NCBI GenBank assembly: GCA_030248215.1
Contig: JASANG010001107.1
Coordinates: forward strand, 1 to 64,000
DNA length: 64,000 bases
Direction of reading: 5' to 3'
Origin: Enoplolaimus lenunculus
Taxonomy: Eukaryota
The notes under the pieces were generated by a model that saw only the letters and a program-made list of their open reading frames with translations, was not told where the DNA came from and did no database searches. This document shows, piece by piece, positions 49,216 through 63,280 of the stretch. Position 1 is the stretch's first letter; every line of letters starts with the position of its first letter. A program made the position numbers and the translations under genes.

Positions 49216-49336
49216 AATCTTATGGCAAAGGTGAAGCGCGAACAAATTAACTGTCAGTGTGGTAGTATTGGTCGGGACCGTGATCTTCAATAATTCAGCA
49301 GTTCGAAAAACAGATGCGATGTGGATTCTAACTCAC

Positions 49337-49581
49337 TGTTGGTATACGTGATGTAGCAAGTGTATGTGCATAGTGTATTTAATGTAAGACATGCACATAG
49401 TACTAGAGATAAATATAATATCGATCGCGTGGTGTAATGGGTAGCGCGCTAGACTGGCGAACGAGAGGTCCGAGGTTCGATTCCCGGCATGACCATATGT
49501 TTCCAAAAATTTAAGGAGAAAAACCAAGTATATTCGCAGTACTTCTAGAAAAGGGGTCGTCGCGACCGTGCAGTGATGACA
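49337..49581 (+). mobile_element. family C tRNA-containing solo LTR
   Basis: TGTTGG...TGACA ends, tRNA-like 49423-49495 with A/B boxes, homologous to 62441-62690, which is preceded by a PPT; no clean TSD. Confidence 0.75.
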
Positions 49582-50239
49582 CGACCTTCACACACTTGAG
49601 TGAAGGCTCTACCATGTGATAAGTTTGTGATAAGTTGGGTAGGCTAGGGTACGACGGTTTTTAGATATGAGTTCTCATCAGCTGAAAATGAGGAACGCTC
49701 CCAGCAGGTTCCGAGCTCGGTCGACAGATTATCAGTCCAGCGCGCTATCCACTGAGCCACGCCGCCTCACAATCAACTGCTGAGTTTTTCCTGTTTTTAT
49801 GCCTTATAAGAACCTCAACTTTGTACACATGTATCTTGGTTCTTCCATGTTTTACTGCTGCTGCATATGAAGGCACTACATATGCAGTAGTGATTTTTAC
49901 CGATGTACAGCATCAGCATGAGGTTATTACTTGTCTCTATGCATCCGCATGTCACATCCCCCGGTTTTCTACAAGGTCGTCCCTTGACCGCCAACTTATG
50001 TTTTTGGTTCTACCGCGGCAGTTTGCCATTGCGGTGCCATCGTGGTCACCATGTGATAAGTTGGGCAGGCTAGGGTACGACGGTTTTAGTTCTGAGTTCT
50101 CAGCAGCTGAAAATGAGGGACGTGCCCAGGATGTTTCGAACTCGGTTGACAGATGATCAGTCCAGCGCGCTATCCACTGAGCCACGCTGCCTCACAATCA
50201 ACTGTTGAGTTTTTCTGTTTTTATGCCTTACAAGAACCT

Positions 50240-51439
50240 TGTCGGGTGGGGCCCCAGTGTGCACTCTGTGTCACACTGGTGCTCACCCTCGGCGTCCCTT
50301 GAGCTCCTAGCTATGTCATTCCTTTGACATGCAATCCCCCCAGTCTCGGTCTCGGTTTGGTATCGCGATTTATACATAACCGGTGTAATTTTACCTTGCC
50401 ATATTGCCTGCTCATTTGTCAAACACTGTGCTTTAACATGCTTGCCAAATTCTTATAAAACTTACTGTCTTTTCTGTCAATTTCGCTTATGTCAGTTACG
50501 TGTATTTTTACATATATTTCTTATTATGTTTTCAGGTACTAAAACCCCATTTTCTGACCAAATTCTATGCGCTCAGTTCATTGCGCATTCCCATTTCTAC
50601 AAATTCTTTCCCCTTTGACCCTTTTGTGCCAGTTCCCACATATCATATTTCTTGTGCTCTTATAAATGCTTATTTTCACGTTTTCAGGCGTCTCCTTCCC
50701 GTTTCCTACTAATTTTCAGGTGCTCATTCCATTTCGCACCTCCATTTCTGCCAATTCTGCCCCATTTGTGTCTTATTTGTCATAATTCTTTTTATGTCGG
50801 GATTATGATGATTCATTCATTCCGGAGTATTCTTATGATCACTTAGCTACTGTTTTGTGCGTAGCTGACGTAGTTTTACGTGTAAAAGATAGCAACATTT
50901 TCGGACGGATAAAAAGTATTATTTCTAGCCTTGACGGAGCGTTTAAAAGCATTAATTCGGAATCGGCGTATTTTGTTTGAACGGAATAATAATTTTCAGG
51001 CCTGGGGAACTGTTAGTTGCAATTTTCGTAATTTGTGTGTTATTGTTATAATTGTGCCCGGACGTGGTTTGGTTAGCAGTCCCGTAAGCTGTGTCTGACA
51101 GAATCTGCTTCTTTTTCGCGTATTTATTACATTTTCCCGCAACTTATAATTGTCGTAAAGCTTTTCGGCCGCATGGCCCTCGTTCAAAAGCAATAATCAC
51201 CAAAACTAGGGAAAATCGGTAATTAGTTTTAAACGGGACTAACGGGCTTGTGTTTACTATTTTGCGTTGCGCCTTTCTTAGTTGTTAGTAAAACGGATAA
51301 AACGTGTGTTATAAACCCGTACGAGCCATAGGAGTGTCTAAACTTGTGTTGAAACTGTTCCAGGATCAACCCGAAACTAGACCATACCCGCCTTCGGATC
51401 GGTCGAAAATTCCCGTTTTTGACCAGTCCAGACCTTACA
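50240..51439 (+). repeat. gypsy 5' LTR
   Basis: TG...CA, direct repeat of 59523-61310. Confidence 0.95.
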
Positions 51440-51454
51440 TGGTGACCACGACGG
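51440..51454 (+). promoter_or_regulatory. primer-binding site, tRNA-Trp-like
   Basis: TGGTGACCACGACGG immediately after the LTR; resembles the canonical Trp PBS TGGTGACCCCGACG. Confidence 0.8.
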
Positions 51455-61310: not shown

Positions 61311-62440
61311 AACCTCAACATACACATGCATCTTCGTTGTACCGACGTGCAGCATGAGGTTATTACTTGTCTCTACGCATCCGCATGTCCCATACCACAC
61401 CACCATGCAGCCCGACATTGTAATTACTTTTATCGTTGACTAAATGACGGCACACATGCTGCCGGCAAGCATACAACATACAAATGCAATGCCTGTATGG
61501 AATATGCAATACTAGCTATAAAATTAAACGAATAGAGCACATGAAGAAAAATTATATACCAAATTGTAAAAATATATGCGTGTTTCCAAGCCTGTAACCA
61601 CTACCTAACTAGTTGAAAAAATATTGAAATTGTTCCTGCTGTTTGCTTTGTTTTTATCGAAAGATAGGGATGTGGGGACAGCGAGACAGCCGGACAGTAC
61701 GAAAGTCGGCACTGTACGACACCCGGACAGCATGGTTTCTCGGTCAGTGCGACGTCTGGCCCAGTAAAAAAGCAGAGATTGTACCACATATGAGAGAGCA
61801 CGACCGCCGTAGCTGCACGACACCTGGAACTCCGCAATAGCATGGACAGCATAACAGCCGGTAAAGCACGACAACCGGGACAACACATCAGCAGGGACGG
61901 CACGACAGTTCAATCAGTATGATAGCTTTGGCAGAATATCAACCGGGATGGCGAGACAGCATGGACAACACGAAAGCCGGGATACCACAGCAGCAACGAC
62001 TGCTATGACACCAAAATAGAACAGAAATCTATGTTGTGAATATATCCGCGACGTGCACTTAGCGCTGCATCTGAAGCTGAAATGAGTATTGTTGAAATGA
62101 TTGAACATGTGACTGGAACAAGCTCTCAAATGAAGCTTCCATTTATATATACCTTGTTTTTCGTAATTTCTTTTTTATATGTTATCGTGAAACATTTAGC
62201 TAGTGTTTTGTGGAACGAAATTGTATCACTGTGATAACATGTGTTTTGACAGCTTCAGCAGCAATTTTCGAATTTTTTATTTAATTCTGGGTTAGGCTTA
62301 ATATTGGTGTCCAAGCCTGCTGCTCCATTAATAGGCTACCTCATTCTTATTAGTAAAATGTCAATTTGAACACTGTCGGTTTCGGTTTGCGGCTGGTTAA
62401 TGATTTCTTTTGAGGTATGTCAGAATTGTACTATCGGTAC

Positions 62441-63155
62441 TGTCAGAACTTCATGGTCGGGATGACCCTTTCTCCGAAGTGCTGTGAATATACATTGTTT
62501 TTCCCCTTAATTTCTCCGAAACATGGTCTCGCCGGGAATCGAACCTCGGATCTCTCGCTCACGAGTCAAGCGCGCTACCCATTACACCATGCGACCGATA
62601 TATTATTCTCAAACACTATATGTGCACGCGGGTGCATGTGTCTTACATTACACACTATGCACATATACATGCTACACCAATATGCCAACATTCCCTCTTC
62701 TTCAGGCGGTCATTCTCCGATGTGACAGGCGGATGCATTGACACAAAATGAAACCTCATGCTAATGCTGCACGTCGGTAAAACGAAGATGCATGTGTATG
62801 TTGAGGTTCTTGTAAGGCATAAAAACAGAAAAACTAGCCGTTGATTGTAAGGCAGCGTGGCTCAGTACCTAGTGTGCTGGACTGATAATCTGTCGACCGA
62901 GTTCGAAACCTTTTGGAACGTGCCTCATTTTCAGCTGCTAACTCAGAACAACACCGTCGTGCCCTTGCCTACCCAACTTATCAAATCCGAAGCATTTGGC
63001 TACGCTGGGAATCGAACCTCGGATTTCTTGCTCGCGAGTCAAGAGCGGTATATCCCCGTTACACCACGCGGCCGATATATTTTTCTCTAACACAATATGT
63101 GCACGTGTATGTATGTGTTACATTACATACTATGCATATACACATGCTGCACGCC
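62441..63155 (-). mobile_element. degenerate TRIM-C: two tRNA-containing LTRs with PPT, interior largely deleted
   Basis: LTR 62441-62690 preceded on the minus strand by GAAGAAGAGGGAA; second copy ~62712-63155 split by a solo LTR-B. Confidence 0.7.
62721..62985 (+). mobile_element. solo LTR of TRIM-B family
   Basis: Homologous to the TRIM-B LTRs over its full length; TSD TCCGA (62716-20 / 62986-90). Confidence 0.88.
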
Positions 63156-63167
63156 GTGGGAAAATAA

Positions 63168-63280
63168 ATGATTACGCTGGATATCGAACCTTTTCCCCCT
63201 AGGTCGAAGTCTAGCGCGCTACAACCTTATATGTGCATTTTTACTTTACATACACCACTTACCGTGCACATATACCGACA
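63168..63280 (-). repeat. decayed family-C-like LTR fragment
   Basis: GGTTCGATATCC B box, GTAGCGCGCTAGAC, TGTCGGTATA terminus. Confidence 0.55.

Follow-up and report, generated by a model that had tools for sequence, protein, structure and literature searches.

Nested miniature LTR retrotransposons with tRNA-like units in a contig of Enoplolaimus lenunculus, and a putative hairpin motif that two of their families share with a neighbouring Gypsy element

TRIMs (miniature terminal-repeat retrotransposons) whose long terminal repeats (LTRs) contain tRNA-derived sequence have been described as Helenus (Kojima 2024, PMC10886601), and the elements reported here, from a stretch of 64,000 nt of Enoplolaimus lenunculus DNA (assembly GCA_030248215.1, contig JASANG010001107.1, positions 1 to 64,000; the window), are of this already published Helenus/TRIMp3 kind. 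Helenus elements are shorter than 1 kb, carry a tRNA-like unit with A and B boxes late in the LTR, enclose a short internal region with a primer-binding site (PBS) plus a polypurine tract (PPT), and leave solo LTRs; several families occur in one genome with differing primers, Pro and Trp types both being found, as in the window (PMC10886601). Their transcription by RNA polymerase III (Pol III) has been proposed, not shown, and for the animal representatives a Gypsy helper was inferred by Kojima from PBS similarity (PMC10886601). In the plant TRIM Cassandra, as summarised by Kojima (PMC10886601), Pol III initiates within the small-RNA unit in the 5' LTR and terminates within its counterpart in the 3' LTR; there the unit is 5S-derived and transcription has been shown, whereas here the unit is tRNA-like and its transcription predicted. 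Ajax, a nemertean TRIMp3 (PMC10886601), resembles the present elements in being an animal TRIM with the remnant of a Pol III promoter and a target-site duplication (TSD) of 5 bp, but its unit derives from 5S and its primer is Leu. In the pair LTR-1_PTrit / Copia-9_PGr (PMC10886601), TRIM and helper likewise share internal and not LTR sequence, namely about 200 bp of the Copia 5' internal region, as compared to 12 PBS bases and a 9-nt Gypsy motif in the window. Finally, the accessible part of the paper on Cer1, a Gypsy element of C. elegans (PMC3315495), gives a Pro-type PBS in the same register as that of our family A together with splice acceptors, Cer1 differing from A in being autonomous and in having no tRNA unit reported there.

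Two families of the window, A and B, were each represented by a complete element that is below 1 kb, non-coding and provided with paired LTRs, PBS, PPT and a TSD of fixed length, which identifies them as TRIMs; with tRNA-derived sequence in their LTRs they also fall under the definition of Helenus, and a third family, C, likely does. We consider it fairly probable that A and B, with C likely as a third family, are transcribed by Pol III and mobilised by enzymes of the lineage of the Gypsy that lies among them. The six animal phyla listed for Helenus exclude Nematoda (PMC10886601), and in every row of Table S1 of that work giving a TSD for an animal Helenus its length is 4 bp, in contrast with 5 bp here; for these two reasons A and B were not assigned to a described animal Helenus lineage. 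Their LTRs (238-265 bp) were also longer than most of the animal Helenus LTRs listed in the same source. The locus would thus break the 4-bp rule for animal Helenus and likely extends tRNA-LTR TRIMs to nematodes; a literature search for such elements in nematodes or for later work, with subscription papers and Repbase mostly outside its reach, found none.

BLAST within the window distinguished A, B and C as separate repeat families, with two A LTRs, three B LTRs (one of them in two parts) and three copies plus one fragment of C. All of these lay in the interval 49.3-63.3 kb, and the first 48 kb were free of them. The copies were nested: an old LTR, split into pieces, contains C and B; B contains an 11-kb Gypsy element whose integrase ends in a PHD finger; and the Gypsy contains A. 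Besides a C 3' LTR and its PPT, a second nest contained a solo B LTR together with two further sequences of C type, one a fragment and the other a deleted, C-related copy. Exact 5-bp TSDs, for which the chance at any one site was 0.0015, were present at four of the six boundaries tested, namely those of A, B, the Gypsy and solo B, the last being exact once its end was shifted by one base, to 62985; all three TRIM insertions with an intact TSD had one of 5 bp.

Family A was represented by a complete TRIM of 583 bp on the plus strand (60572..61154), located in the 3' LTR of the Gypsy and recognised by its LTR pair, TSD and empty site. The 5' LTR (60572-60809) and the 3' LTR (60917-61154) flank the internal region (60810-60916) and were identical at 228 of 236 positions. 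The TSD GTTAG (60567-60571 and 61155-61159) matched only at k=5, and the target occurred once without the insert, in the Gypsy 5' LTR (51284-51288), providing an empty site within the window. The tRNA-like unit, with A and B boxes and a following run of four Ts (T4), occupied 60677..60757 and, in its second copy, 61022-61102; both units aligned over their full length to the Rfam tRNA model at 20.1 and 20.9 bits, under the cut-off of 29 bits. An 18-nt Pro-type PBS (60810..60827) precedes the core shared with B, its first 8 bases matching the tRNA-Pro 3' end given in Fig. S2 of Kojima (PMC10886601). The core itself (60828..60916) comprises two predicted hairpins, the second one holding the 9-nt motif (60887-60895), and a PPT with 11 purines of 15. 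All the differences between the A LTRs fell past position 156 of 238 (60727-60809 vs. 61072-61154; P 0.0002), for which template switching, gene conversion or a polishing error are possible causes. LTR divergence was set aside as a clock, given that A is nested in the Gypsy and yet its LTRs differ more (8 differences vs. 2.9 expected). The start of the A internal region (60810-60847) resembled the 5' half of its own tRNA unit (60677-60707; p 0.002), the resemblance including a D-loop-like stretch that is retained in B.

The earlier note on this DNA, made from the sequence, had listed B copies at 49615 and 50052 separately; both positions proved to belong to a single complete minus-strand TRIM, each being the 3' end of one of its LTRs; the element runs from 61392 to 49615 and measures about 700 bp excluding the Gypsy. 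The B 3' LTR (49615..49956) was identical to the corresponding part of the 5' LTR at 172 of 188 positions; its usual end is 49626, and this copy has an 11-nt terminal duplication and a 55-nt insertion, which lies at 49840-49895, contains short inverted repeats and is missing from the other B copies. The 95-bp internal region (49957..50051) holds a Trp-type PBS (50051-50034), the shared core, the 9-nt motif (49986-49978) and a PPT (12 purines of 15), and the first 8 bases of the PBS match the tRNA-Trp 3' end in the same published figure (Fig. S2, PMC10886601). The 5' LTR is cut by the Gypsy into an upstream part (61311..61392, minus strand), which matched the solo B LTR over its positions 1-88 (74/80), and a downstream part (50052..50239, minus strand) with the end of U3, the unit (50195-50114), T4 and the tail, aligning to positions 84-263 (161/180); placed on the solo B LTR, the two parts follow one another directly, and their overlap corresponds to the 5-bp Gypsy TSD. 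TGGTA flanks the whole element (49610-49614 and 61393-61397); the same letters behind the 3' LTR had been considered as a second PBS, which was discarded since they are the TSD. The solo B LTR (62721..62985, plus strand) stands directly behind the tRNA unit of a C LTR and is flanked by TCCGA, as read from the sequence (62716-62720 and 62986-62990).

Family C comprised a solo LTR on the plus strand (49337..49581; tRNA unit 49423-49495; no intact TSD) inside the split LTR, and a minus-strand 3' LTR (62441..62690; unit 62596-62524) with TGT..ACA ends, 196 of 234 positions being identical between them. Rfam recognised a tRNA in both, at 34.9 and 37.8 bits, respectively. Adjoining the latter is a short internal remnant with a PPT (62691..62715, minus strand; 13 purines of 15), of which 21 nt before the LTR resembled the 3' internal end of A (p 0.0004, in a window picked by eye). 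A further minus-strand fragment lacking both ends (62986..63155), likely the 5' LTR, was identical to the 62441 copy at 137 of 160 positions and scored 26.8 bits, under the cut-off. C had a PPT and two copies on the same strand, its internal region being deleted and no PBS or intact TSD found; it is likely a third tRNA-LTR TRIM family. The fragmented family D of the earlier note dissolved into two separate entries: a split LTR related to A (p 0.001) and a deleted C-related fragment without A box (63161..63280, minus strand), which matched C copies at p 0.001-0.002 and A at p 0.027. The split LTR is a single, older one, cut in three by B and the solo C LTR. Its first piece (61393..61541, minus strand, start uncertain), with the upstream part and the beginning of the A box, was collinear with A positions 30-128 (p 0.001); its second (49582..49614, minus strand), which lies between the inserted B and C and represents the centre of the tRNA-like unit, with A positions 124-143 (15/20); and its third (49252..49336, minus strand), with the B box, five Ts, a degenerate CAGCTGCT motif and a tail ending in ACA, resembled A at p 0.013 and B at p 0.004.

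The architecture claimed for these distinct families held in the main for A, B and C and not for D as one family. Three segments made up each LTR: 86-130 nt upstream, the tRNA-like unit itself (73-77 nt) and a tail measuring 56-86 nt. The tRNA-like character was borne out by box pairs: a pattern based on the general A- and B-box consensus, loosened after the sequence was seen, occurred at 6 sites in the 64 kb, all of them in A, B or C LTRs, where 60 shuffles gave 0.05 on average, with a spacing of 43-45 nt retained across the three families. Each family deviated at one or two bases from the box motifs of Kojima (TRGCY..YGG, GGTTC). Rfam agreed clearly for two C copies and weakly for A, not for B, whose tRNA-derived status is read from boxes and spacing, and ARAGORN called no tRNA in the window. 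The short T run was confirmed as T4 in A and B and not in C, and enrichment in TGCA/CATG words in four of the five upstream parts tested (P < 0.0001 to 0.029), the split LTR reaching only 0.07. The termini were not TGT and ACA throughout, the B 5' LTR beginning with TGG and solo B terminating in AAA. The PBS types did differ in the way proposed, A being Pro-like and B Trp-like over their 8-base matches, and the motif following the unit in A and B proved specific, as TTTT(C)CAGCTG occurred five times in the window, every time in an A or B LTR.

That these families form a single diversified superfamily, as also suggested beforehand, is supported at the level of sequence for A, B and the split LTR, and hinted at for C. 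The internal regions of A and B were homologous (75/95 identical, p 0.001), and the post-unit motif is common to their tails (p 0.006), with a worn copy in the split LTR. Conversely, the upstream parts of A, B and C lacked mutual similarity (p 0.15-0.99; 0.99 for A vs. B), as did the C tail compared to the tails of A or B (p 0.48 and 0.87), and apart from the 21-nt remnant C shared with the other families only generic boxes (p 0.04-0.07). The shared core begins at offset 18 after the LTR in both A and B, indicating that the stretch exchanged has exactly the length of the PBS. A and B may therefore descend from one ancestor in which the 18-nt PBS and the upstream part of the LTR were swapped and the internal core was kept, a clean primer exchange for which this locus is of interest. 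Folding of the whole internal regions was unremarkable (z -0.9 and -0.6), and a z of -6.3 for the predicted A RNA was set aside as a structure signal, the unit occurring in it twice. Predicted pairing of the LTR tail with its own internal region exceeded cross-family pairing in five of five comparisons (own p 0.005-0.055); it was not specific, with cross pairs at p 0.01-0.04 in three of the five and the Gypsy tail with the A internal region at 0.012, so that it stands as no more than a hint.

The transcription that we favour follows the Cassandra mechanism as summarised by Kojima (PMC10886601). In the 5' LTR both boxes would be bound by transcription factor IIIC, with Pol III initiating at the tRNA-like unit; some polymerases would pass the first T4 and stop at the T4 of the second unit, yielding for A an RNA of 426 nt that would begin and end with the unit, which would then act as the R region. 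On this path A and B hold no sense T4 other than the one following each unit, so that a full RNA requires read-through of the first. According to a preprint, Pol III frequently reads through the terminators of human tDNAs. Reverse transcription would be primed by a host tRNA (Trp for B and the Gypsy and Pro for A, judging by the PBS), insertion is of the integrase type with a 5-bp duplication, as the TSDs and the empty site of A show, and solo LTRs would arise by recombination between LTRs.

Several observations weigh against this reading of transcription and membership. The preprint just mentioned reports four Ts as the most efficient human Pol III terminator; avoidance of T runs, tried as a signature of Pol III, was rejected with 2 sense T4 observed vs. 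2.1 expected; no T4 follows the C unit, only TTT, in three of three copies; the Rfam tRNA search of the B unit gave no match at E<=10; and the two C copies among the six boundaries tested had no intact TSD, no PBS being found in the window for any C or D copy. In addition, the motif after the unit, TTTT(C)CAG, also reads as a nematode splice acceptor, and we take it to fit the nematode 3' splice consensus. This leads to the alternative in which the elements are TRIMs transcribed by RNA polymerase II (Pol II) from the TGCA/CATG-rich part, the unit being a relic or an enhancer and the motif an acceptor of splicing or trans-splicing. The absence of T4 in C and the AATAAA present in the upstream part of A are compatible with it, a host unc-104 acceptor in the window ends in TTTCAG, sense TTTTCAG occurred 4 times in the Gypsy LTR vs. 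0.26 expected, and Cer1 of C. elegans is described as SL1 trans-spliced (PMC3315495). Plausible as it is for a nematode, we nevertheless regard Pol II transcription as unlikely, since the boxes and their spacing persist in three families with dissimilar upstream parts, the motif in A is followed by a cytosine and not by a purine, and splicing at the motif would leave the RNA without a unit at its 5' end. Sense TTTCAG was itself in excess along the Gypsy, in the LTR (50530-50994; 4 vs. 0.85 expected), the 3' region (57912-59467; 6 vs. 1.16) and pol (8 vs. 2.46).

The Gypsy element (50240..61310, plus strand) was delimited by Pfam, open reading frames and its TSD AACCT (k=5), with a 5' LTR at 50240-51439, a PBS at 51440-51457 and a 3' LTR at 59523-61310 interrupted by A. 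Between LTRs of 1.2 kb, Pfam gave the order of CCHC knuckles, protease, reverse transcriptase, RNase H, integrase and C-terminal PHD finger, i.e. the Ty3/Gypsy domain order between long LTRs. The gag-protease region was broken over several frames, and one pol reading frame (54401-57877, plus strand) extended from the reverse transcriptase through RNase H and integrase to the PHD finger. A search with the reverse transcriptase returned generic Gypsy relatives only, with up to 57% identity. Leaving aside one tract of corrupted appearance, the LTRs had 14 differences in about 1134 sites. The PHD finger at the integrase C-terminus (57696-57850, plus strand; Pfam PF00628, 28.3 bits) is a candidate chromatin reader; chromoviruses carry a chromodomain at this position of the integrase. 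C- and A-rich tracts of corrupted appearance were seen at 59568-59633, about 52690-52790 and 54140-54230, with 24 of the 38 LTR differences falling within 66 nt, and are possibly base-calling errors of the assembly.

What links this Gypsy with the TRIMs is the 9-mer CAAGGGACG, which A, B and the Gypsy all carry at a distance of exactly 30 nt ahead of the 3' LTR; in the Gypsy it lies at 59493-59501 within a predicted hairpin that precedes the PPT (both in 59487..59522, plus strand). In-register runs of nine between the TRIMs and the Gypsy had p values of 0.0001 and 0.0006, and the motif is predicted to cap a hairpin in all three elements, the stem of the Gypsy being different. B and the Gypsy also shared the first 12 bases of the PBS, which occur at these two places only in the window, in accordance with the sharing of a PBS with a Gypsy of the same genome in animal Helenus (PMC10886601), a trait not seen between A and this Gypsy. 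A, B and the Gypsy all gave TSDs of 5 bp. We propose that Gag or reverse transcriptase of the helper recognises the RNA by means of the hairpin 30 nt before the 3' LTR. How the dependence of TRIMs on an autonomous partner is maintained is, according to Kojima (PMC10886601), not known; the locus offers a candidate signal for it, a hairpin motif whose distance from the 3' LTR is constant across two TRIM families and a Gypsy, so that the helper link, drawn from the PBS only in animal Helenus, is joined here by a position-locked 3' motif.

This link has its own counterweights: the motif was spotted by eye and compared with one Gypsy copy, the Pro-type PBS of A is unlike the Trp-type PBS of the Gypsy, the Gypsy has no counterpart of the hairpin 1 predicted in A and B, and a 5-bp TSD is common to many LTR elements. 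They leave room for a helper from another LTR lineage with 5-bp TSDs, either a different Gypsy clade or BEL, the motif then being general in the LTR elements of this genome. In support of such a helper, A and this Gypsy differ in their primers, BLAST within the window gave no similarity between TRIM and Gypsy LTRs, and a single autonomous element was compared. We doubt this explanation in view of the identity and exact position of the motif and of the 12 PBS bases of B; moreover, the motif had no match in the published Helenus sequences, although matches across line ends could be missed there. In that motif search (not an alignment) of the sequences in the Kojima supplement (PMC10886601), the hairpin-1 loop and CCAGCTGCT had 0 matches as well, and of six short motifs searched two PBS starts alone matched. 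Under mobilisation by the lineage of this Gypsy, A would require a Pro-primed relative of it or a helper accepting either primer. The reverse complement of the motif occurred near the start of the Gypsy 5' LTR (50293-50301), and pairing of the Gypsy motif with its LTR was not significant (p 0.12-0.19).

The statement that these repeats are TRIMs and not tRNA-derived short interspersed elements (SINEs), as which they would normally be mis-annotated, was verified for A and B and is likely correct for C. In A, B and C the unit does not form the 5' tRNA head of a SINE2 element, as it begins 86-130 nt inside the repeat, and the poly-A or simple-repeat tails with TSDs of variable length that characterise SINE2 were lacking in A, B and the C copies of the window, where ACA ends and, at A and B, 5-bp TSDs were found. 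Of the claimed features C retains a PPT, and the lack of PBS and intact TSD in the C and D copies would suit repeats of the tRNA-SINE type rather than LTRs. That C and D are such repeats is nonetheless very improbable, with a unit 86-94 nt inside the repeat, TGT..ACA ends in two C copies, a PPT abutting the end at 62690 and a remnant resembling that of A, no poly-A or simple-repeat tail, and the split D collinear with an A LTR. Self-priming of A, with the LTR unit trimmed, provided with CCA and annealed to the PBS, is very improbable: the first 7 bases of the A unit equal PBS positions 5-11 and the end of the 3' LTR unit complements 6 PBS bases after TGG, but this complementarity falls to 4 bases in the A 5' LTR copy and 3 in B, descent of the unit from the priming tRNA-Pro would by itself produce such a match, Kojima found no complementarity of this kind (PMC10886601), and the stems of the A unit are broken.

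Insertion sites were concentrated around the units. C and B entered the unit of the split LTR, the Gypsy lies 40 nt upstream of the B unit, solo B follows a C unit at a distance of no more than 10 nt, and A lies in the Gypsy LTR, away from any unit, so that four of five insertions with a defined host site were in or within about 40 nt of the tRNA-like unit of another element. Such a count is suggestive of Pol III units being targeted; the window, however, was selected because of this cluster, and nests can also arise where insertions are tolerated. As a speculation to which we attach little probability, a nematode Gypsy clade with PHD integrase might drive a fleet of Pol III TRIMs by way of the hairpin loop at -30, independently of primer and LTR, and aim at tRNA-like units, so that the TRIMs would make their own landing pads.

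Copies were also sought in public contigs from three DNA runs of one study, all of them covering this region and possibly including the source sample. Contigs leaving the sequence at 60809, the terminal ACA of the A LTR, numbered 146 (X1) and 115 (X3), counts taken from 18 of 5342 loose-end rows; beyond this end the flanks were mixed and AT-rich, with an agreement of 0.36-0.37. A sharp end with mixed flanks is as expected of an LTR end and not of a poly-A tail. Summed contig depth was 3,500-7,700 times that of nearby single-copy contigs over A and 500-2,500 times over the bin with C and solo B, values which are no copy number and were read solely as highly repeated. In practice, annotation would take these families, which may number thousands of copies, for SINEs or tRNA pseudogenes. 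Two further high-copy repeats were observed to the left of the nest (48925-49213), with 122-134 contigs ending at 48925 and relatives at 27648 and 38624.

Other features of the window included exons of unc-104/KIF1A on the minus strand (15362-24264). For one of them identity ranged from 83 to 93% with nematode proteins and from 75 to 83% with the remaining named matches, and one exon was nearly nematode-specific; the window is thus animal DNA and its host likely a nematode. Over five exons, 171-205 identities of 279 were counted to eight of nine nematode proteins and 152-162 to four vertebrate proteins, in a comparison set without arthropods and nematomorphs; identity was highest to Trichuris, Trichinella and Parascaris, and Ditylenchus gave 129 identities with two exons unaligned. 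An intronless UTP15 gene (42714-44249, minus strand) had a best match of only 42%, too low to help in placing the host, its neighbouring gene having many introns. A tandem array of 24-nt and 12-nt units (24912-25314), which drew spurious Rfam matches, formed part of a repeat whose relatives lie at about 5209 and 15571, and a dispersed family of tandem units of 154-177 nt was found in both orientations (20096-20570, 35040-35404 and 37343-38413).

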